A stretch of 26,708 nt of DNA from Clostridia bacterium. GTDB taxonomy: Bacteria; Bacillota; Clostridia; RGIG7378. This document shows positions 6,248 to 16,885 of this stretch, piece after piece; position 1 is the first letter of the stretch; each line of letters begins with the position of its first letter. Location: contig JAFVXO010000055.1 of NCBI GenBank assembly GCA_017501105.1, forward strand, positions 1 through 26,708. The letters are read 5' to 3'. Made by a program: the position numbers and the translations under genes. The notes under the pieces were generated by a model. That model made no database searches, was not told the DNA's origin, and saw only the letters and a list, made by a program, of their open reading frames with translations.

Positions 6248-6263
6248 ACAAACAAATGTTTGT
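6248..6263. promoter_or_regulatory. LexA operator candidate (Cheo/DinR-box geometry): ACAAAC-AAAT-GTTTGT
   Basis: Perfect palindrome with 6-bp arms and a 4-bp spacer, immediately downstream of the -10 and upstream of recA. It has the same geometry as the Gram-positive SOS box GAAC-N4-GTTC, but with AAAC/GTTT cores. Confidence 0.5.
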
Positions 6264-6286
6264 GCAGGATTGTTAGGAGGACAGAT

Positions 6287-7351
6287 ATGGTAAATGATAG
6301 ACAAAAGGCGATTGAAGCCGCTATGTCACAGATAGAGAAGCAGTTTGGCAAGGGATCCGTTATGAGACTGGGAGACCACAGCCATATGAATATTGAAGCT
6401 ATTCCCACCGGATCTATGATATTGGATATTGCTCTTGGTGTAGGAGGCATTCCCAAGGGACGTATTATTGAGATATACGGACCTGAATCTTCAGGTAAGA
6501 CAACAGTTTGCCTGCATGTAATTGCTGAGGCACAGAAGCAGGGTGGAGTTGCTGCATTTATTGATGCTGAGCACGCACTTGATCCTGTTTATGCAAAGAA
6601 GCTTGGTGTCGATATCAACAACCTGCTTGTCTCACAGCCTGATTTTGGCGAACAGGCCTTGGAAATAGCAGAGGCTCTTGTACGCAGCGGTGCTGTAGAT
6701 ATTATTGTTGTTGACTCTGTTGCAGCATTGGTGCCCAAGGTTGAGATTGATGGCGAGATGGGTGATTCCCATGTTGGTTTGCAGGCCAGGCTTATGTCTC
6801 AGGCCCTGCGCAAGCTTGCTGGTATTGTCAGCAAATCCAACTGTATTGTTATGTTCACCAACCAGCTGAGAGAGAAGGTTGGCGTTATGTATGGCAACCC
6901 TGAGACAACCACAGGAGGCAGAGCCCTTAAGTTCTACGCCTCGGTTCGTATGGATATCCGCAGGATTGATTCTATTAAAAATGGCAGCGAGATTGTGGGT
7001 AATAGGACCAGAATTAAGGTTGTCAAGAACAAGGTAGCTCCTCCGTTCAAAGAGGCCGAGTTTGATATTATCTATGGTGAAGGTATTTCAAGAGAAGGTG
7101 GCATCTTAGATGTTGCTGTTCTAAACAATATTATTGTCAAGAGCGGTTCATGGTTCTCCTACAATGACAATCGCATAGGACAGGGCAGAGAGAATGCCAA
7201 GCTTTTCCTGCGCAACAATCCTTCTATCCTCGATGAGATTGAGGCCAAGATTCGCTCCATCTATTTTTCTGATAAGACAGCAGCATTAGATGAGGATATT
7301 CCCGAAATCTATATTGATGACCTTGATGACGACGACTCTGACGAGATCTAA
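6287..7351 (+). CDS. recA: recombinase RecA
   Basis: [29 protein letters not shown]..., Walker [19 protein letters not shown], and an acidic tail [12 protein letters not shown] place the start at ATG 6287 (AGGAGG 6275-6280) rather than the track's TTG 6260. Confidence 0.97.
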
Positions 7352-7356
7352 ATTTT

Positions 7357-8244
7357 ATGTTTAAGAGAGCTACAGACAGCATTGTATTTCGAAAAGTATG
7401 CATTTTTAGCATGGTGCTGAATGTAGCTTCTCTTTTTTCTGTTTTTATCGCAATTACATATGAGTTTGTTCGTAACTACCAGCATATTGACTCGCTATTC
7501 GAGAGTAACATAGAGACTTTCGTCTTTATATTTATAGTTCTACTTGTTGTAATTGATGCGATTTCCAATGTTTTGCTTTGCAGGTCAGCAATGAGAATGT
7601 CACAAATTTCTGATTCTATTAAATCATCCCACAACAATCTTGATAAGCTCAACAATGACATGCGTAAGCAGAGACATGACTTCATGAACAACCTCCAGGT
7701 CATCCACGGCCTGATTAGTATGGATTGCTATCAGGAGGCTAAGATATACATCGACAGTGTATATACTGATATTCGCAGCATAAGCCGTATTCTTAAAACC
7801 GATAGCCCTGCCATTAACGCTCTGTTACAGGCCAAGGTGGCACGTTGTGACGAGCTGAATATTCCAGTAAATCTTGAAATTATGTCTACTTTTAAGGACG
7901 ACATGCCTATGCCTGAGTGGTTAGTTTGCAGAATACTAGGCAATCTAATTGATAATGCCATTTATGCCATATTAGATAAGGGGCAAGGGCATCTCCACAT
8001 AGTTTTGACAGAGGATGTTAATGCTCACTCACTTTCTGTATCTGATGACGGTACATCCATATCCTCTAATTTTATTGACAAATTATTTATTCCGGGATTC
8101 TCAACCAAGGGTGACAAGGGTACGGGCATGGGCTTGGCTATATGTAATGATTTAGTCAGGGAATACAGTGGTTCTATTAATCTTAAAATAGAGGACCAGT
8201 ACAAGACATTTACCGTTATTATTCCAAAGTCCATATCCATCTGA
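7357..8244 (+). CDS. sensor histidine kinase, intramembrane-sensing type (2 TM, SpoOB/CitA-like DHp, GHKL ATPase)
   Basis: 295 aa. Two TM helices (IFSMVLNVASLFSVFIAI; FVFIFIVLLVVIDAISNVLL) are separated by only about 19 residues. H-box is RKQRHDFMNNLQVIHGLI, N-box GNLIDNAIYA, G-boxes GFSTKGDKGTGMGLAI. The ATG lies 5 nt after the recA stop with no clear Shine-Dalgarno; an alternative ATG at 7411 is possible. Confidence 0.8.
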   Translation: MFKRATDSIVFRKVCIFSMVLNVASLFSVFIAITYEFVRNYQHIDSLFESNIETFVFIFIVLLVVIDAISNVLLCRSAMRMSQISDSIKSSHNNLDKLNNDMRKQRHDFMNNLQVIHGLISMDCYQEAKIYIDSVYTDIRSISRILKTDSPAINALLQAKVARCDELNIPVNLEIMSTFKDDMPMPEWLVCRILGNLIDNAIYAILDKGQGHLHIVLTEDVNAHSLSVSDDGTSISSNFIDKLFIPGFSTKGDKGTGMGLAICNDLVREYSGSINLKIEDQYKTFTVIIPKSISI

Positions 8245-8341
8245 CATTTCAAACATTCAACTGTATAGTTTGGCAAAAAATCCCCTATCATCAGCATAGT
8301 ATGATATACTTAATTCAAATACTGATGACAGGAGGTTATAT

Positions 8342-8860
8342 ATGCTATTTTTAGCCGACGGATTTTTTTCATTTGCAGATAACATTACGCTGATTCCTGC
8401 TATTCTGTTAATTCTGGGCACTTCTCTATTTGTGGTAGAGATGTTTATCCCGGGATTCGGATTCTTTGGAGTATCAGGTATTGTGTGTTATCTGATATCA
8501 ATCCTGTTGACCGCTAAGACATTAGTTGAATTCCTCTCTATGCTGGTTGTTCTGCTGGCTGTGTTGGCAATCTTAACAACAATTATGCTGATACTTCTAG
8601 GCAACGGAAAGTTACCCAGCAAGATTGTGCTCAAGGACAGTATCGACGGAGTATCAACTTCTGTCCCGAATACTGATGATATCAACTATTATATTGGCAT
8701 GACAGGAACAGCTGTTTCAACATTAAGACCCTCCGGCACATGCGAGATCAATGGCGTAAAGTTGGACGTTATGACTGACGGAGAATTTATTGAACTTGGT
8801 ACACCTATTGTTGTATCAAAAGTAGTTGAGGGACACATCATTGTTAAATCAGACAAATGA
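8342..8860 (+). CDS. nfeD: NfeD-family membrane protein (short form: TM region plus C-terminal OB-fold)
   Basis: 172 aa. N-terminal hydrophobic helices, then the C-terminal motif GMTGTAVSTLRPSGTCEINGVKLDVMTDGEFIELGTPIVVSKVVEGHIIVK typical of the NfeD OB-fold domain. AGGAGG RBS at 8330-8335. Lies in the same gene cluster as floA. Confidence 0.8.
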   Translation: MLFLADGFFSFADNITLIPAILLILGTSLFVVEMFIPGFGFFGVSGIVCYLISILLTAKTLVEFLSMLVVLLAVLAILTTIMLILLGNGKLPSKIVLKDSIDGVSTSVPNTDDINYYIGMTGTAVSTLRPSGTCEINGVKLDVMTDGEFIELGTPIVVSKVVEGHIIVKSDK

Positions 8861-9608
8861 CAAAATAACGGTATTAATCCTGGACGATGATGCCGGCATG
8901 AGATTGTTGTTGCGTAAGATCGTTGAACAGGATGACAGATTTGAATGTGTTGCAGAGGCTTCTTGTGCAGAGGCTGCAATTGAACAATTCAGAGTTTATC
9001 ATCCTCACTTGGTTTTTTCGGATATTGATCTGCCCGACGGAAATGGAGTAGACAGTGCACGCAAAATCCACGAAATTGATCCTATGACCAAGATTGTGTT
9101 TGTTACGGCGTATGAACAATATATGGCAGATGCCTTCAGTGTTTATGCCTTTGACTACATTGTCAAACCTTTTGACATTGATCGTGTTAAGGCAACGCTA
9201 AATGCCATATATGACATATTGAACGTAACGCATATTAAACCAATTCTCACTGTCTCGGATAAAAATATTGCTCCGGATAAGCTCGTAGTAAAGACAAAAG
9301 AAAGCTACAGCTTCATCAATATGGAGGACATAATTCTTATACAGCGAGAGGATAGGTCTACAGTTATTTACACCATCAATAACGGACGATATGTGACTAA
9401 GGATACGCTATCCGATATTATGGGAAGACTAGACAAGAGTTATTTGATACGTTCACACAAATCATACATCATCAATGTTAATAAGATTACTGACATTTAC
9501 GTGTATGGCAGATGGACATACTTGGCAAGATTTTCTGGAACCACAGTTGATGCATTGATAACATCAGAGAGTTTCGAGATTATCAAACAGAAGTACAATA
9601 TTAATTAA
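8826..9608 (+). CDS. LytTR-family (LytR/AlgR) response regulator
   Basis: Receiver domain: VLILDDD..., phospho-acceptor VFSDIDLPDGNG, VFVTAY, YIVKPF. C-terminal LytTR domain: ...SYLIRSHKSYIINVNKI.... The only plausible starts are TTG 8826 or TTG 8838 (GAGGGA at 8828-8833 sits 4 nt before 8838), both inside the 3' end of nfeD. The next in-frame ATG (8898) lies downstream of the receiver's acidic DDD motif. Confidence 0.85.
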   Translation: MRDTSLLNQTNDKITVLILDDDAGMRLLLRKIVEQDDRFECVAEASCAEAAIEQFRVYHPHLVFSDIDLPDGNGVDSARKIHEIDPMTKIVFVTAYEQYMADAFSVYAFDYIVKPFDIDRVKATLNAIYDILNVTHIKPILTVSDKNIAPDKLVVKTKESYSFINMEDIILIQREDRSTVIYTINNGRYVTKDTLSDIMGRLDKSYLIRSHKSYIINVNKITDIYVYGRWTYLARFSGTTVDALITSESFEIIKQKYNIN

Positions 9609-9638
9609 CCGTAAGGTAGAAAGATAAGGAGAAACATT

Positions 9639-10625
9639 ATGACAAACTTAAACGCAGTAAACATCGCTCTTGCCACATATGGTGGCCTGCCAATACTTGT
9701 TATTGTAGCAGCAATATTCCTGTTCCTGGCCATCTTGTGCAGCCTCTTCCCAGTAGGCCTCTGGATTTCAGCAATTGCTGCAAATGTTAAGGTCAGTATC
9801 AGCACACTGATTGGTATGAGATTCAGAAGAGTTGTTCCTTCCAGAATCGTCAATCCTCTGATTAAGGCAACCAAGGCTGGAATTAATGTCAATATCAATA
9901 AACTTGAAGCTCACCTGCTGGCCGGCGGTAACGTTGATAGAGTTGTAGATGCACTCATCGCTGCACAGAGAGCAAATATTACGTTGGAGTTTGAGAAGGC
10001 GGCAGCTATTGACCTGGCTGGTCGTAACGTACTTGAGGCAGTTCAGATGAGTGTTAACCCCAAGGTTATTGAGACACCCGTCATTGCTGCAATTGCCAAA
10101 AACGGTATTGAGCTCAGAGTTAAGGCAAAGGTTACAGTCAGAGCTAATATTGAAAGACTTGTCGGCGGCGCCGGTGAACAGACAATTATCGCTAGAGTTG
10201 GTGAGGGCATTGTTACCACGATCGGCTCCTCTGAGACACATAAGGACGTTCTGGAAAATCCCGATTCTATCTCTAAGACTGTTTTGATTAAGGGACTAGA
10301 CGCAGGTACTGCCTTTGAGATTCTCTCTATTGATATTGCTGACATTGACGTAGGCAAGAATATCGGCGCACAGCTTATAACTGACCAGGCAGAGGCTGAC
10401 AAGAAAATTGCACAGGCCAAAGCAGAGGAGAGACGTGCAATGGCTATCGCCCTTGAGCAGGAGATGAAGGCAGAAGTAATTAAGGCAGAGGCTGAAATTC
10501 CTAGAGCTATGGCTAAGGCATTGTCCGAGGGTACGCTGGGTGTTATGGATTACTACAACATGCAAAATGTAATTGCTGACACAAAGATGAGAGAGAATAT
10601 TGCTAAGGACGACAATCAGAAATAA
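9639..10625 (+). CDS. floA: flotillin-like protein FloA (SPFH/band-7, YqfA/UPF0365 family)
   Basis: 328 aa, with long near-identical stretches to my recollection of B. subtilis FloA: [26 protein letters not shown]..., [113 protein letters not shown]. Confidence 0.93.
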
Positions 10626-10636
10626 GAGGTGATACT

Positions 10637-10933
10637 ATGTCACTAAAGTTTAATCCTCAAGCAGGTGTACAACCAACTCCTAAACCCAGAGTAAATGTTC
10701 CAGAGGGGCAATCAACAGAGGGTAAGGCAAACCCAGGCAAAATACCTCAGTTTACGCCAGATCCGGAACACTGTGTTATCGATCATGTTGATGACGGTGT
10801 CTATGATAAAATTTCTCAAGGTGGCAATACTCTTGAAAATCTTGATGAATTAAGATATTCTCAAGTTGCTAAAAGGGCCTTTTTGTATAGTGAAATTTTA
10901 GGGAGACCCTTATCACAAAGGCACAGGAAATAG
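10637..10933 (+). CDS. hypothetical small protein (Pro/Gly-rich, probably disordered N-half; basic C-terminus)
   Basis: 98-aa ORF with a good RBS (AGAGGTGA, 5 nt before the ATG), 11 nt after floA and 5 nt before murI. It occupies the position of yqfB in the B. subtilis yqeZ-yqfA-yqfB operon. I recognise no motif. Confidence 0.55.
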   Translation: MSLKFNPQAGVQPTPKPRVNVPEGQSTEGKANPGKIPQFTPDPEHCVIDHVDDGVYDKISQGGNTLENLDELRYSQVAKRAFLYSEILGRPLSQRHRK

Positions 10934-10938
10934 GGTTA

Positions 10939-11730
10939 ATGAAAATCGGTTTTTTTGATTCTGGTATCGGCGGGTTAACAGTACTCGCCGATGCCGCAAC
11001 TTTATACAAAGATTGCGAGTTTATATATTTTGGGGATGTAATACATGCTCCATATGGTACCAAGGATAGAGAACAAGTTTTATGTTTAACCTTGGACGCT
11101 GTCGAAACTCTTGCAAAGGAAAATCTCGATGCACTGGTTGTAGCCTGTAATACTGCAACCAGTGTTGCTGTACGTGCCCTTAGAGAAAAGTACTCTTTTC
11201 CCATCATTGGCATGGAGCCTGCATTAAAGCCGGCTCTTTCCGCTTCTGAGGGAAACATTTTAGTTTTAGCTACTGAATTAACACTGAGGGAGTCAAAATT
11301 CAAATACTTGGTTGACACATTTAATGCAACAGACAGAGTCTTAAAGCTTCCCATGGGAAATCTGGTTAAGTTTGCTGAGGCTGGAGATTTTGATTCACCG
11401 CAGTTAGTTGAGTATATTAAAAAGCAACTAAGTACCATTGATTTAAAGAACATTGATTCAGTTGTTTTAGGATGCACACACTTCCTGTACTTCAGAAATA
11501 TTATTGAAAAATTACTCCCCGGGCATATTCGTATTTTTGATGGCAACTCAGGAACAATTCGTCACACCGCTAAGTTAACCGGAGTTGATATGAGAGCTAC
11601 ATCTGCTGATCCCGATTTTGGCAGGATTAAGTTTTACATGTCGGGTTTGCTTCTGGATGACCATTGTCTGAAATACCATCAGTTTATAGATTCGATAAAT
11701 AATTATCTTGGAGGTAGAAAAAATGGGTAG
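10939..11730 (+). CDS. murI: glutamate racemase
   Basis: MKIGFFDSGIGGLTVL, the two catalytic-Cys motifs VVACNTATS and VLGCTHF, and a length of 263 aa. Confidence 0.93.
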   Translation: MKIGFFDSGIGGLTVLADAATLYKDCEFIYFGDVIHAPYGTKDREQVLCLTLDAVETLAKENLDALVVACNTATSVAVRALREKYSFPIIGMEPALKPALSASEGNILVLATELTLRESKFKYLVDTFNATDRVLKLPMGNLVKFAEAGDFDSPQLVEYIKKQLSTIDLKNIDSVVLGCTHFLYFRNIIEKLLPGHIRIFDGNSGTIRHTAKLTGVDMRATSADPDFGRIKFYMSGLLLDDHCLKYHQFIDSINNYLGGRKNG

Positions 11731-12814
11731 CGAAAGAGATATGATTATTGATCGTTGTGAAAAATTGCATGCCGCAATTAACAGAAGCGAATCTTATGCT
11801 GTTTTGTTGACCAACGACTATAATGTCAGGTATTTTTCCGGTTTTACCGGAGACTCTACATATTGTCTGATTATTGGGGATGACAAATACGTTATAACTG
11901 ACTCCAGATATACACTCCAATGTTCTCAACAGTGTCCCGGATATACTGTTGTAGATTCTAAAAACAACTTGATGCTATGTACCTCCGAACTGGTAAAAGC
12001 ATCAGGCGTATCTACTCTATATGTTGAAAGCGATATTTCAGCAGCAGCATGGTTACAGATAAACAGTATAATGGGTTGCAAAGAGTACCCATTTGTGGAC
12101 CAGTACACCGCTGAGATTCGAACAGTTAAGGACAAATTCGAGCAGGAATACTCTGCGATTGCTGCATCCATTGCAACAGAATCCCTTGAGGTGATTTGCA
12201 AGTTGCTCCGTCCAGGTGTCTCCGAGCATACAATTGCTCTGGAACTTGAGTATGAAATGAAAAAGAGAGGCGCATCAGGCACTTCTTTTGATACTATTGT
12301 TGCCTCCGGTGCCAGATCCGCATTGCCCCACGGGGTTGCATCATCCAAAATAATCGAGGCAGGAGACCCTGTAACAATTGACTTTGGCTGCATTTACAAT
12401 GGATATTGTTCCGATTGTACCCGTACTTTGTTTGTTGGCACACCTGACCAACGCATGGTTGAAATTTATAACATTGTCCTCAAGGCACAGACAGAGGCTC
12501 AGGCTGCAATTAAATCAGGAGTTACCGGCAAGTACGTTGATAGCATTGCAAGAGGTATTATTGCAGATGCTGGCTACGGCGAAAGATTTGGCCACGGTAC
12601 AGGTCATGGAACCGGCCTTGAGATCCACGAAGCACCCAGACTAAGCCCATCTGCAGTTGCGGACAAGATTTTAACTCCTGGTATGATCGTTACTTGTGAG
12701 CCAGGCATTTACATTGATGGCTTTGGGGGCGTTCGTATTGAAGATCAGAGCATAGTAGAGGATAAAGGCAGTAGAATATTGAGCTCTTTCCCCAAGGAAC
12801 TCATTATTTTATAA
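11723..12814 (+). CDS. M24B-family Xaa-Pro aminopeptidase/dipeptidase (YqhT-like)
   Basis: Creatinase-like N-domain plus pita-bread fold. Metal ligands in DFGCIYNGYCSDCTRT, GHGTGHGTGLEIHEAP and CEPGIY...GGVRIED. Start placed at ATG 11723 (GGAGG at 11710-11714), overlapping murI by 8 nt. Sits upstream of efp, as in Bacillus. Confidence 0.88.
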   Translation: MGSERDMIIDRCEKLHAAINRSESYAVLLTNDYNVRYFSGFTGDSTYCLIIGDDKYVITDSRYTLQCSQQCPGYTVVDSKNNLMLCTSELVKASGVSTLYVESDISAAAWLQINSIMGCKEYPFVDQYTAEIRTVKDKFEQEYSAIAASIATESLEVICKLLRPGVSEHTIALELEYEMKKRGASGTSFDTIVASGARSALPHGVASSKIIEAGDPVTIDFGCIYNGYCSDCTRTLFVGTPDQRMVEIYNIVLKAQTEAQAAIKSGVTGKYVDSIARGIIADAGYGERFGHGTGHGTGLEIHEAPRLSPSAVADKILTPGMIVTCEPGIYIDGFGGVRIEDQSIVEDKGSRILSSFPKELIIL

Positions 12815-14414: not shown

Positions 14415-14773
14415 TAGCCTGTATATCCATTGTTTTAGTTGCAATAATTGCCAAAGTTATACTCGAACAATGCAATTCAAAACTGGCTATTCTGCCAATA
14501 ATTGCTGCAGCCATTATTTTATCTTTGATATTTGCAAACAAATATCTGGAATCCATGGACTATATCAGTCAATTTGCATCACTGGGCGACAACGTCAAAT
14601 CAATAATGCACCTTATTCTAATTGGCACTATAGGTGAAAAGTTGTCTGAGGCAGCTGGAGAAAGAGGGCTTTCAACCCTGATTAAATGCGTTTCATACAG
14701 TTTCCTCTGCATCAATGCAATAAATATGTTCAGGGAAATGGCAGAAACCATAAAATTAGGTGGATTTATATGA
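14411..14773 (+). CDS. spoIIIAD: stage III sporulation protein AD
   Basis: 120 aa, multi-TM, with the central motif ...LILIGTIGEKLSEAAGERGLSTLIKCV... resembling the SpoIIIAD 'iaeia..ic.DaGe.aia' segment. ATGA overlap with spoIIIAC. Confidence 0.72.
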   Translation: MIACISIVLVAIIAKVILEQCNSKLAILPIIAAAIILSLIFANKYLESMDYISQFASLGDNVKSIMHLILIGTIGEKLSEAAGERGLSTLIKCVSYSFLCINAINMFREMAETIKLGGFI

Positions 14774-15702
14774 GTTACGAGGAATTTTTTGAATCCTTCA
14801 ACATATCTCAACTGGAAATCCAAGGAAATCCGATATCTGTACCTGACTTAACTATATTAGCTGGTAATGTAATATTTGTTGTAATTTTTGTTTTATTATC
14901 CAAAACTCTGAATTCAAACATATCCAACAAATATACAGGTTTGATATGCATGATGACAGGTATAGGTCTGCTGGTTCAGCTGTACGATGTGGTTTTCGAT
15001 GCACTTGCATCCTGCACTTCGTACATGATGTTGTGTGTATCCACAATATTTGGAATTGTTACCTATGCCCAGGGGTTAGGACTGGACATGTCGGGATTGT
15101 CTCTTGCCGGGTCAGTTGGAATACCGATAATTTGCAGTACATATACCAACATGGGTATAAACGTATTTAAAGCATCTTGTTGCCTTGGGTTGTGCGGCAC
15201 TATATCAGGCTCTGGTCGATTTAGAAGTTTATCCGAAATTACATCCGGGACCTGTAAATTTTTAATGTGGTTCTTTGGAATAGTTACATCATTTCTTGTT
15301 GTATACATATCGACCACATGTAAAGTAGTCGGTTCATACAGCATGATGACATTGCGAACGGCCAAACTATCTGCCGGCACACTATCGCCATTGTTGGGCA
15401 AAGACTTGGGCGAAATATCCGAGGTTGTGTTTGATTCGTTGGCTGTAATATCGGCGACAGCTGGCAAATATATAACTTCCTCTATAGTTGCTCTCTGTGT
15501 ATTTCCGCTAATAAAGGCAGAATTAATATTTATTGAACTAAAACTCCTGGGTAGTATAACAGAAAACATCAGCGACTCAAGATGTTTATCAAATGCAGCC
15601 ACAGGCGGTATGGTTGCTATATCAATTTTATTTTCTGTATGTGTCTGTTTGTTGCTGGTAACGTCGGCTCTATGTGGTGTATGTGAGAAATTTCAAGTAT
15701 GA
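14770..15702 (+). CDS. spoIIIAE: stage III sporulation protein AE (polytopic membrane protein)
   Basis: 310 aa from ATG 14770 (AGGTGGA RBS; ATGA overlap with spoIIIAD). The track's 14686 start lies inside spoIIIAD. Multiple TM helices, in the operon position between AD and the AF-like gene. Shorter than my recollection of the Bacillus protein (about 400 aa). Confidence 0.72.
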   Translation: MSYEEFFESFNISQLEIQGNPISVPDLTILAGNVIFVVIFVLLSKTLNSNISNKYTGLICMMTGIGLLVQLYDVVFDALASCTSYMMLCVSTIFGIVTYAQGLGLDMSGLSLAGSVGIPIICSTYTNMGINVFKASCCLGLCGTISGSGRFRSLSEITSGTCKFLMWFFGIVTSFLVVYISTTCKVVGSYSMMTLRTAKLSAGTLSPLLGKDLGEISEVVFDSLAVISATAGKYITSSIVALCVFPLIKAELIFIELKLLGSITENISDSRCLSNAATGGMVAISILFSVCVCLLLVTSALCGVCEKFQV

Positions 15703-16234: not shown

Positions 16235-16282
16235 GTAATGGTCATCATAATATCAACTAAAGACAAATAAGTGAGGATTATT

Positions 16283-16885
16283 ATGATGATTATTAAGAGA
16301 AAACAGATAATTGTTGTTGCCGTTGCATTGCTACTATTGTTGGCGGGAGTTGTACAGATTGTATTTGGTGGACGCAATACAGATATACCCAGCCAAGGCG
16401 ACAACACCGAAGTAGTGGACAAAGACTCTAATAACAGTAGTAGCGTTATATTTGACGACGTTGTTTCTGATTCAAATTCCAACTCGGACGTAAATGTAGA
16501 TGCAGATATTTCTACACCATCAGATAAGGATTTTAACAACTTTTTTGCATACGAAAAGACTGAACGTAAATCATTGAGAGAAAACCGCCAGGAAGCCCTG
16601 AACAGCATTACTGAGAGTCAGACTGCGGATGAAGCCTCCAAATCTCAGGCATATACGTCTCTTATGGAGTTGGTGGCTCTTACTGAGAAGGAACAATCCC
16701 TTGAAAACATGATTATTGGCTGTGGATATGATGACTGCATTGTATATTTCTTTGAAGATGGAACAATTGATGTATGCGTTGCCGCAACTGAGATGTCGGG
16801 AGTAGAGGCAACTAAAATAGCTGACATTGTTGCCAGGAATACAGCCACCACTTTAGACAACGTCTACGTTAAGACTAAGTTCTAG
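16283..16885 (+). CDS. spoIIIAH: stage III sporulation protein AH
   Basis: N-terminal TM helix (IIVVAVALLLLLAGVV), a polar acidic linker, and the C-terminal pattern SLENMIIGCGYDDCIVYFFEDGTIDVCVAATEMSGVEATKIADIVARNT typical of SpoIIIAH. Start is ATG 16283 or 16286 (GAGGA at 16273-16277); the track uses GTG 16271. Confidence 0.75.
   Translation: MMIIKRKQIIVVAVALLLLLAGVVQIVFGGRNTDIPSQGDNTEVVDKDSNNSSSVIFDDVVSDSNSNSDVNVDADISTPSDKDFNNFFAYEKTERKSLRENRQEALNSITESQTADEASKSQAYTSLMELVALTEKEQSLENMIIGCGYDDCIVYFFEDGTIDVCVAATEMSGVEATKIADIVARNTATTLDNVYVKTKF

Follow-up and report, generated by a model that had tools for sequence, protein, structure and literature searches.

Why should a two-component system (TCS) lie inside a flotillin operon? 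The question is raised by a stretch of 26,708 nt from a Clostridia bacterium (contig JAFVXO010000055.1; this whole stretch is called the window below), in which an earlier note had described genes for a sensor histidine kinase (HK) and a LytTR-family response regulator (RR) interleaved with nfeD and the flotillin gene floA. Here, five genes follow each other on the plus strand: the kinase gene (7357-8244, 295 amino acids (aa); list of open reading frames (ORFs), Pfam and NCBIfam), a short-form nfeD (8342-8860, 172 aa; ORF list, Pfam and hydropathy), the regulator gene (8841-9608, 255 aa, with a TTG start; Pfam and NCBIfam), floA (9639-10625, 328 aa, encoding the flotillin-like FloA/YqfA of the SPFH5 type; Pfam and NCBIfam) and a small ORF of the yqfB family (10637-10933, 98 aa; iterated profile). 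The ORF coordinates of the earlier note were all reproduced by the ORF list, the intergenic distances that it gave (97, 30 and 11 nt) are correct to the nucleotide, its domain calls were confirmed by Pfam and NCBIfam, and no terminator-like site was found in 7357-10933, in agreement with its claim. With a probability of about 0.7, we read this locus as a dedicated, positively autoregulated envelope-stress TCS that would drive the flotillin operon.

Spread and inheritance of the five-gene module

As the earlier note had suggested, we surveyed the gene neighbourhood of floA, taking one genome per GTDB species (80 loci, L001-L080) and mapping the genes by tblastn and locally built hidden Markov models (HMMs). 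A second scan of metagenomes was seeded with the kinase and yielded 86 loci, which were reduced to 46 kinase clusters at 90% identity, 39 of them evaluable. Greedy ORF maps were dropped because of long spurious antisense ORFs in high-GC loci, and HMM-labelled maps were used instead. A module of five genes, HK-nfeD-floA-yqfB-RR, all on one strand, was observed to recur across several clostridial lineages. Its carriers include Acetivibrio clariflavus, Ruminiclostridium hungatei, Clostridium omnivorum, Christensenella, Clostridium sensu stricto and Oscillospiraceae metagenome-assembled genomes. TCS genes were found at 16 of the 55 evaluable floA loci (10 with kinase and regulator, 6 with the regulator only), and the other 39 had neither. 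Seen from the kinase, nfeD lies directly 3' in 29 of the 39 evaluable clusters, and the remaining 10 kinases are orphans. Moreover, the kinase homologues of three named genomes (A. clariflavus, C. omnivorum and R. hungatei) all belong to clusters of the form HK-nfeD-floA-small ORF-RR, as shown by independent gene calls together with precomputed Pfam matches. The genes that flank these canonical loci are unrelated ones (LytR_cpsA_psr, SurE, PMT). Since the arrangement recurs in many independent genomes, it exceeds chance by far.

The presence of the TCS is clustered on the FloA tree, requiring 9 Fitch parsimony changes, compared to a mean of 17.1 and a minimum of 13 in permuted data. The pairwise distances of the proteins are also correlated (0.90 for HK-NfeD, 0.89 for HK-RR and 0.87 for NfeD-RR), so that kinase, NfeD and regulator diverge together. 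These findings argue that the TCS and nfeD-floA form an old unit, inherited as a block. The earlier note had considered that the arrangement might be an insertion confined to one strain; the recurrence of the module, its clustering on the tree and the existence of relatives with the order of the window all speak for a conserved unit instead. The co-location of kinase and regulator in most lineages and their co-divergence (r = 0.89) also give indirect support to a possible phosphotransfer between the two.

The usual order of the module is HK-[box]-nfeD-floA-yqfB-RR, with a conserved box in front of nfeD and a regulator gene that often overlaps the small ORF by 1-7 nt. A regulator gene between nfeD and floA was observed in the window and in L085, L001 and L086, thus in at least four related genomes, the kinases of the latter three being 86%, 66% and 55% identical to that of the window, respectively. 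The wider context, MurJ-RecA-HK-NfeD-RR-FloA-small ORF-MurI-PepP-EF-P, is conserved among the same four. In canonical loci nfeD lies directly 5' of floA; in these four the two genes are not adjacent, the 768-nt regulator gene lying between them. We regard the order in the window, on the basis of this comparison, as a lineage-specific permutation of the common module. An interleaved TCS, as described in the earlier note, is therefore true of the window and three relatives, but generally the TCS brackets the nfeD-floA core.

Has the regulator of the window replaced another one, or has it moved? With the HMM of the family it scores 354; regulators encoded after yqfB in full canonical loci reach 311-416, and unrelated regulators at most 92. 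This score points to an orthologue of the post-yqfB regulators that was relocated, not replaced. The protein matches the Pfam families Response_reg (1.1e-22) and LytTR (3.2e-16), its closest solved LytTR domain is 3d6w (E 8e-4), and the residues of the receiver are all intact, namely the acidic pocket D15/D16, the phospho-acceptor D61, T89 and K109. The earlier note had placed the start at a TTG inside the last 23-35 nt of nfeD. We kept the TTG at 8841, which is preceded by a ribosome-binding site (RBS), GAGGGA, at 8828-8833 (8 nt upstream) and gives a 20-nt overlap with nfeD, and dropped the alternative at 8826, since L001 and L085 have an in-frame TAA directly 5' of the conserved TTG and GAGGGA is conserved as well.

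The membrane proteins of the core were examined in the same way. NfeD consists of the NfeD_membrane domain and the NfeD C-terminal domain, with several transmembrane (TM) segments in its N-terminal half and without a ClpP-like protease domain. The TCS-linked NfeDs, at 165-227 aa, are all of this short form. A long form of 330-503 aa, fused to a ClpP-like domain, was found at 18 plain loci and at no TCS locus of the FloA-seeded sample L001-L080, across which the short form spans ~150-250 aa, these short and long counts being uncorrected for phylogeny. FloA is identified by PF12127 (1.7e-153) and by the NCBIfam FloA equivalog (1.3e-157, 524 bits for a cutoff of 393), and its identity to the 80 homologues of the survey ranges from 71 to 90%. 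Searches of PDB sequences with NfeD and FloA gave no match.

The 98-aa ORF returned no match in a Pfam search even at E = 10, the model set used being without YqfB. We therefore seeded a profile with this ORF and iterated it over the ORFs that directly follow floA. The profile takes in 92 of 99 such ORFs, the window protein with an E value of 1.6e-12. The family shares a C-terminal motif, (G/A)-hydrophobic-hydrophobic-[WY]-SEILGxPxxxRR, which is also present in the Brevibacillus (Bacilli) locus and reads AFLYSEILGRPLSQRHR in the window, where the protein is short and has no N-terminal TM segment. Precomputed matches to PF27722 (YqfB), weak or faint, exist for the counterparts in L081 and L084 (A. 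clariflavus and R. hungatei). Since the small ORF joins the YqfB family, the ancestral nfeD-floA-yqfB core is complete in the window.

Some loci carry only part of the module. In L087 (6001-8272), the kinase gene, a strong box (43.8 bits), nfeD and the regulator gene are followed by a gene for a major facilitator superfamily transporter, and neither floA nor yqfB was found within the 6 kb fetched on either side. The retention of HK-nfeD-RR without floA nearby suggests that the TCS has its closest tie to NfeD and a looser one to FloA. In L120 the order is RR-HK on a short contig. The orphan kinases form a monophyletic high-GC clade (0.56-0.66) with the same architecture and with no nfeD, floA or regulator gene nearby (L121-L159, which belong to one human-gut species, and L100, L104, L107, L116, L146, L151 and L163-L167); the human-gut orphan kinase gene overlaps the end of an upstream gene of 431 aa. 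The high-GC clusters with the regulator only (L012, L022, L045, L056, L072 and L080) form one FloA subclade, and in L012, L022 and L045 a gene of 194-209 aa with a conserved N-terminal region lies 5' of nfeD. Orphan kinases and regulator-only clusters may have arisen by the splitting of one system into two parts, a mirror pattern that fits a single event relocating the kinase gene.

The proposed LytTR-type box and -10 element

A spacer between the kinase gene and nfeD is retained in all lineages, and we extracted it from each. These spacers are otherwise unalignable, and they share one motif, aAAAa[T/C]GACAnTTcagnc-N7-TGTATwwTTcaGc...tTatgTATT, present as a single copy in almost all of them. 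Across 39 non-identical instances the distance in GACA-N15-TGTAT never varies, and motif positions that were not used for its discovery are conserved as well. An internal repeat (TTCAG) recurs with a phase of 21 bp (r = 0.53 at 21 bp and at most 0.23 elsewhere). The layout of the family is aCAnTTcaG (+1 to +9), 12 nt, a second repeat (+22 to +30), ~31-33 nt and then a -10; the -10-like hexamer has an offset of +61 to +64 in 22 of the 39 instances and of +69/+70 in 7.

In the window, the predicted box occupies 8244-8273 on the plus strand. It consists of two direct repeats, DR1 (8244-8252) and DR2 (8265-8273), separated by a 12-nt spacer, and a predicted extended -10 element, TGaTATACT (8302-8310, plus strand), is located 31 nt 3' of DR2, so that the whole reads ACATTTCAA-12-ATAGTTTGG-31-TGaTATACT over 8244-8310. 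The upstream flank GACA (from 8243) overlaps the TGA stop codon of the kinase gene (8242-8244), which makes the stop codon part of the element; elsewhere in the family, too, the element starts only a few nucleotides from this stop codon, and in canonical loci the box begins at a median of ~13 nt past the kinase stop. TGnTATACT is invariant in the window, L085, L001 and L086, and the box is conserved in the same relatives. The heptamer GACATTT occurs twice here, 38 nt apart (8205-8211 and 8243-8249), its first copy lying in the 3' end of the kinase gene, outside the family element.

When the 26.7-kb window was scanned with a position weight matrix (PWM) for the box, a single match was obtained, at 8243 with 25.2 bits, the next best site reaching 4.3 bits and the maximum of 50 shuffles 14.3 bits. 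At the other loci the search covered ~5-6 kb on each side of the cluster. The box was detected in most TCS-linked loci; those with an above-threshold match have a single one each, which invariably lies in the spacer from the kinase stop to nfeD. A separate search with a strict pattern found it once in the window and in 28 loci overall, 27 of them at the kinase-nfeD position. The regulator-only loci L045, L056 and L072, which were outside the set used to build the matrix, have the site 5' of nfeD. There was no PWM match in any orphan-kinase locus and none 5' of nfeD in the plain nfeD-floA loci, apart from which one marginal antisense match was seen elsewhere in L077. Its presence in regulator loci that lack a kinase, together with its absence from orphan-kinase and plain loci, indicates that the box tracks the regulator gene.

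What kind of element is this? The ComE box reads aCAnTTcaG-12-aCAgTTgaG and is followed by 31-32 nt to the -10 (PMC6001120; for ComE see also PMC4005675), and the sites bound by AgrA are likewise direct repeats, located immediately 5' of the promoters that it controls (PMC4227749). The family consensus of DR1 is identical to the ComE box, and the window has the same 9-bp repeats, 12-nt spacer and 31 nt to the -10. We adopted the reading of the element as a predicted LytTR box of the ComE/AgrA type because it would explain all the features, that is the repeats, their spacing, the 21-bp phase and the -10 offset. The earlier note had proposed to test the kinase-nfeD spacer (8245-8341) for binding of the regulator and had thought feedback of the regulator on its own operon possible. 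This spacer is not featureless, a conserved box and a -10 being found there, and the position of the box 5' of nfeD agrees with such feedback. The further suggestion of the note, that the regulator may control envelope genes such as murI, found no support: no box was detected near murI, near recA or elsewhere in the 26.7-kb window, and none lies 5' of the kinase gene.

The leader of nfeD also contains an inverted repeat on the plus strand (8279-8337), with arms of 19 nt at 8279-8297 and 8319-8337 that are 79% complementary (-17.8 kcal/mol, z = -2.65). The hairpin pairs a CCCCT-containing segment 5' of the predicted -10 with the RBS of nfeD, AGGAGG (8330-8335). The RBS would be masked only in transcripts reading through from recA and the kinase gene, as transcripts starting at ~8317 would not contain the left arm. 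A similar masking was predicted in L085 (z -2.75) and, with a different left arm, in L001 (z -2.16). A conserved leader RNA structure was rejected, given that the masking is absent in L086 and in canonical loci and that no consensus fold was obtained.

Sensing, regulation and alternative readings

The kinase matches SPOB_a (1.1e-16), HATPase_c (3.8e-16) and HATPase_c_5 in Pfam. Its hydropathy profile shows two hydrophobic segments, at residues ~14-36 and ~54-76, joined by a linker of ~17 residues. No PAS, HAMP or GAF domain lies between the second TM helix, which ends at ~76-79, and the dimerisation and histidine phosphotransfer (DHp) domain, Pfam finding only SPOB_a (91-148) and the HATPase domains. 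In an alignment of 38 kinase homologues, the loop between the two TM helices is gapped and varies in length and sequence, while H107, N196/D199/N200, G232 and GxGMGL (the N and G boxes) are invariant. The kinase thus has two TM helices, a linker of less than ~25 residues and no added input domain, as expected of intramembrane-sensing kinases, and the assignment to this class made by the earlier note is supported by both the hydropathy and the alignment. Given this architecture, the cue for the kinase probably lies in or at the membrane.

The earlier note had also seen a mismatch between a CitA-like H-box and a LytTR regulator. The H-box, RKQRHDFMNNLQVIHGL, is indeed present, with H107 as the phospho-accepting histidine, and Pfam and NCBIfam favour a DHp domain of the SPOB_a/DcuS type. 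The mismatch was overstated, however, since the closest solved match of the DHp and ATPase domains is the module of AgrC (6e52, E 2.4e-11), a kinase that itself works with a LytTR regulator. In NCBIfam, too, the kinase matches the AgrC model (1.8e-15).

Taken together with the box, these features lead us to the following mechanism. The kinase, which has neither an extracytoplasmic nor a cytoplasmic input domain and would therefore read a signal in or at the membrane, would phosphorylate the regulator at D61. The phosphorylated regulator is expected to bind DR1 and DR2 as a tandem dimer and to activate a promoter at ~8305-8317, with a predicted transcription start near 8317. This promoter would transcribe nfeD, the regulator gene, floA and yqfB, which would result in positive autoregulation, and possibly read through into murI. 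The kinase gene, being 5' of the regulated promoter, would be expressed separately and outside the inducible unit, here probably with recA; as there is no terminator, some transcripts of the kinase gene probably continue into nfeD at a basal level. In this way the TCS would replace the sigma-W control of yqeZ-floA-yqfB, its output being more flotillin/NfeD complex. More speculatively, the NfeD/FloA/YqfB complex might act back on the kinase, in the manner of LiaF towards LiaS.

Several points weigh against a dedicated TCS that activates the flotillin operon. The orphan kinase clade and the regulator-only clusters exist, so that physical linkage is not obligatory. The PWM scan is partly circular for the loci used in the matrix, and a number of loci stayed under its threshold, both linked ones (L006, L009, L025, L049, L086 and L101) and regulator-only ones (L012, L022, L026 and L080), but the strict pattern is present in L086, and inspection by eye shows divergent repeats in a few of the remaining loci. 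The regulator may also have targets beyond the ~5-6 kb flanks. Moreover, we infer from sequence where transcription starts, that the regulator activates and does not repress, and that kinase and regulator are partners, and the nature of the stimulus likewise; the NfeD/FloA feedback is purely an inference. Finally, the repeats resemble a sigma-A promoter, with CTGACA-17-TATAGT in the window and ATGACA-17-TATAAT in L081.

A more far-reaching version of the circuit, which we hold only tentatively and would not bet on, makes the NfeD/FloA/YqfB complex both the output and the sensory input of the kinase, in a homeostatic loop set by flotillin occupancy. Here, free NfeD or the flotillin assembly would hold the kinase off through TM-TM contacts, and the kinase would be released when clients such as damaged or unfolded membrane proteins, or an altered fluidity, titrate the complex, in analogy to LiaF-LiaS or PspA-PspBC. 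NfeD is the favoured coupling protein because L087 has no floA nearby, because TCS-linked loci have the short-form NfeD exclusively, and because NfeD-like partners occur in LytTR systems of Bacteroides. If true, such a loop would be the first signal-transduction system dedicated to bacterial membrane microdomains.

Could the flotillin act on the kinase as a scaffold instead, as the earlier note proposed and as has been reported for KinC and the flotillins of B. subtilis? FloA and NfeD would then assemble or activate the kinase in a microdomain, the regulon would lie elsewhere (e.g., murI), and the co-location of the genes would serve the co-expression of scaffold and client, an arrangement compatible with a TCS that also drives the operon. 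Such a role agrees with the close linkage of the kinase gene to nfeD and floA and with the parallel divergence of their products, and so does the need of an input-less kinase for a partner or a membrane cue; in addition, murI starts 5 nt after the operon, with no terminator, in four related genomes. We nevertheless consider this unlikely, as the sole box in the window and in the ~5-6 kb flanks of every locus is the one 5' of nfeD, the murI adjacency is limited to the lineage of the window, and L087 keeps HK-box-nfeD-RR without floA within the 6 kb fetched on each side.

The resemblance of the repeats to a sigma-A promoter opens another possibility, namely that the element itself is the nfeD promoter (-35 TGACA, 17 nt, -10 TATnnT), either constitutive or repressed by the regulator. 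The downstream -10 would then be a second promoter and the TCS would repress the flotillin operon. A promoter scan scores 10/12 in the window and 11/12 in L081, with 37 of 39 instances at 8/12 or more, and AgrA is also able to repress (PMC4227749). The details fit poorly, however. The first T of TTGACA, one of the best-conserved positions of a -35, is a T in only 2 of the 39 instances and the second in 22; ~20 bits of conservation lie outside the hexamers, including TTCAG at the 21-bp phase; and the G directly before TAT is invariant, a feature that sigma-A does not require. Furthermore, another -10 is fixed ~33 nt downstream, as in ComE-type promoters, and the element is absent 5' of nfeD in plain nfeD-floA loci. 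We therefore rejected a sigma-A promoter as the principal reading, on account of the weak TT of the -35, the conservation outside the hexamers, the 21-bp phase and the fixed -10, and regard it as distinctly improbable.

Least of all do we credit an extracytoplasmic-function (ECF) sigma promoter with the TCS as a mere hitch-hiking neighbour (GAC-N16-(T/C)GTA read as TGAAAC-N16-CGTA), for even though the spacing equals that of ECF promoters and the orthologous B. subtilis operon is sigma-W-dependent, most instances have GAC instead of AAC and TGT instead of CGT, the element tracks the regulator gene even in loci without a kinase, the 21-bp repeat and the fixed distance to a sigma-A -10 would be left unexplained, no sigma or anti-sigma gene is present in the clusters with annotated genes, and the conservation in distant lineages and the co-divergence argue against a chance neighbourhood. 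This ECF/sigma-W reading was rejected; a strict TGAAAC-N16-CGTA site was found only in the Brevibacillus locus L041 (TGAAACAATTTTCTTCCACCTTCGTA, at ~5990, 5' of nfeD), the single locus from Bacilli, where it is expected, and neither the window nor any other TCS-linked locus has one ahead of nfeD. The other plain clostridial nfeD-floA loci have neither a strict sigma-W site nor a LytTR box.

Genomic context and comparison with known systems

Upstream of the module lies recA (6260-7351, plus strand; Pfam RecA 1.6e-145). The ATG of the kinase gene is located 5 nt 3' of the recA stop, the gap being ATTTT, and recA is immediately 5' of the kinase gene in L001, L085 and L086 as well, with a 4-nt overlap in L085 (6001-6004). 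From this 5-nt gap and 4-nt overlap, the kinase gene is probably co-transcribed with recA in the lineage of the window and perhaps translationally coupled to it. No strong RBS was observed ahead of the kinase ATG in the window.

Downstream, murI (10939-11730, plus strand; Pfam Asp_Glu_race) starts 5 nt after yqfB with no terminator in between, so that read-through is possible and transcripts driven by the regulator could reach murI and pepP in the lineage of the window; the order yqfB-murI is also found in L001, L085 and L086. Across 10933-12814, yqfB, murI and a gene for an Xaa-Pro peptidase follow one another closely, the first two 5 nt apart and the last two overlapping by 23 nt, and the sole terminator-like site there is weak and lies inside murI (11602-11625).

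Further along the window, a spoIIIA operon is recognised by an ORF with a SpoIIIAE domain (14686-15702) and another with a SpoIIIAH domain (16271-16885), and the host organism is thus probably an endospore former. A BspA-type leucine-rich repeat protein is encoded on the minus strand at 497-2245, and other genes of the window code for a UvrD-like helicase, the large subunit of exonuclease VII, a polyprenyl synthetase, a DXP synthase and an FtsJ-like methyltransferase. Neither an Rfam family nor a tRNA was found anywhere in the window.

The role of bacterial flotillins is debated, with scaffolding, fluidity control and the stabilisation of unfolded membrane proteins as candidates, and to our knowledge almost nothing is known of flotillin regulation outside the sigma-W regulon of Bacillus. 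A kinase-regulator pair with a recognisable site makes the signal that induces a flotillin testable with a reporter gene, and the module is present in cultivable species, namely Acetivibrio clariflavus, Ruminiclostridium hungatei and Clostridium omnivorum. It also offers a genetic entry point to the function of NfeD and YqfB. Under the proposed mechanism, the same operon would be wired to different envelope-stress regulators in different lineages.

The earlier note knew of no TCS inside an nfeD-floA operon, and we found none described in the searchable literature, including PMC2636767, the PSP neighbourhood surveys PMC9239133 and PMC11237479, and PMC6193735. A TCS dedicated to the nfeD-floA-yqfB operon is thus apparently undescribed, and it is instructive to place it among the systems that it resembles.

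The closest counterpart of the core is the yqeZ(nfeD)-yqfA(floA)-yqfB operon of B. subtilis, which is part of the core regulon of sigma-W and has a share in the resistance to sublancin (PMC3498285). The same core in the same order is tied there to an envelope-stress regulator (for SPFH5/NfeD operons see PMC2636767), whereas here NfeD is of the short form, a flanking TCS and a LytTR box appear to take the place of the ECF sigma promoter and, in the window, nfeD and floA are separated by the regulator gene.

A functional link between a flotillin and a histidine kinase has likewise been described for KinC and FloT/FloA of B. subtilis (PMC4409396). In contrast to the present kinase, KinC is unlinked to the flotillin genes, has a PAS domain and feeds the Spo0A phosphorelay; the link found here is a genomic one, and the flotillin operon looks like an output of the system and not only like its platform.

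The combination of a LytTR regulator with an NfeD-type membrane protein also has precedents. Among the LytTR regulatory systems (HdrRM/BrsRM), some variants in Bacteroides have a membrane partner with an NfeD-like domain (PMC6193735), so that there, too, a LytTR regulator is encoded beside an NfeD-type membrane protein; in the window, nfeD and the regulator gene overlap by 20 nt. The regulators of these systems, however, have no receiver domain and are controlled by sequestration and not by phosphorylation, while the one described here has a full receiver and a kinase.

With ComDE of S. pneumoniae and AgrCA of S. aureus, whose kinases are of the HPK10 type, the module shares a regulator with receiver and LytTR domains, an AgrC-like kinase module, the direct-repeat architecture of the box and a regulator gene inside the regulated unit, which implies positive autoregulation, here as a prediction. 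It differs from them in having a two-TM kinase with a short and variable loop instead of a peptide receptor with 6-7 TM segments, in lacking a gene for a pheromone precursor or an exporter, in its SPOB_a DHp domain (CitA/DcuS/Spo0B-like), and in its output, which would be a flotillin operon rather than competence or virulence genes.

LiaFSR and BceRS-BceAB, in turn, provide the precedent for a minimal two-TM kinase without an input domain, encoded beside membrane proteins that are its target, with the logic of an envelope-stress circuit and with probable autoregulation. Their regulators are of the NarL and OmpR types, in contrast to the LytTR regulator found here, and the putative accessory proteins are NfeD, FloA and YqfB instead of LiaF or an ABC transporter. 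The system is thus like ComDE and AgrCA in its promoter and like LiaFSR and BceRS in the architecture of its sensor, and it is a member of none of them.

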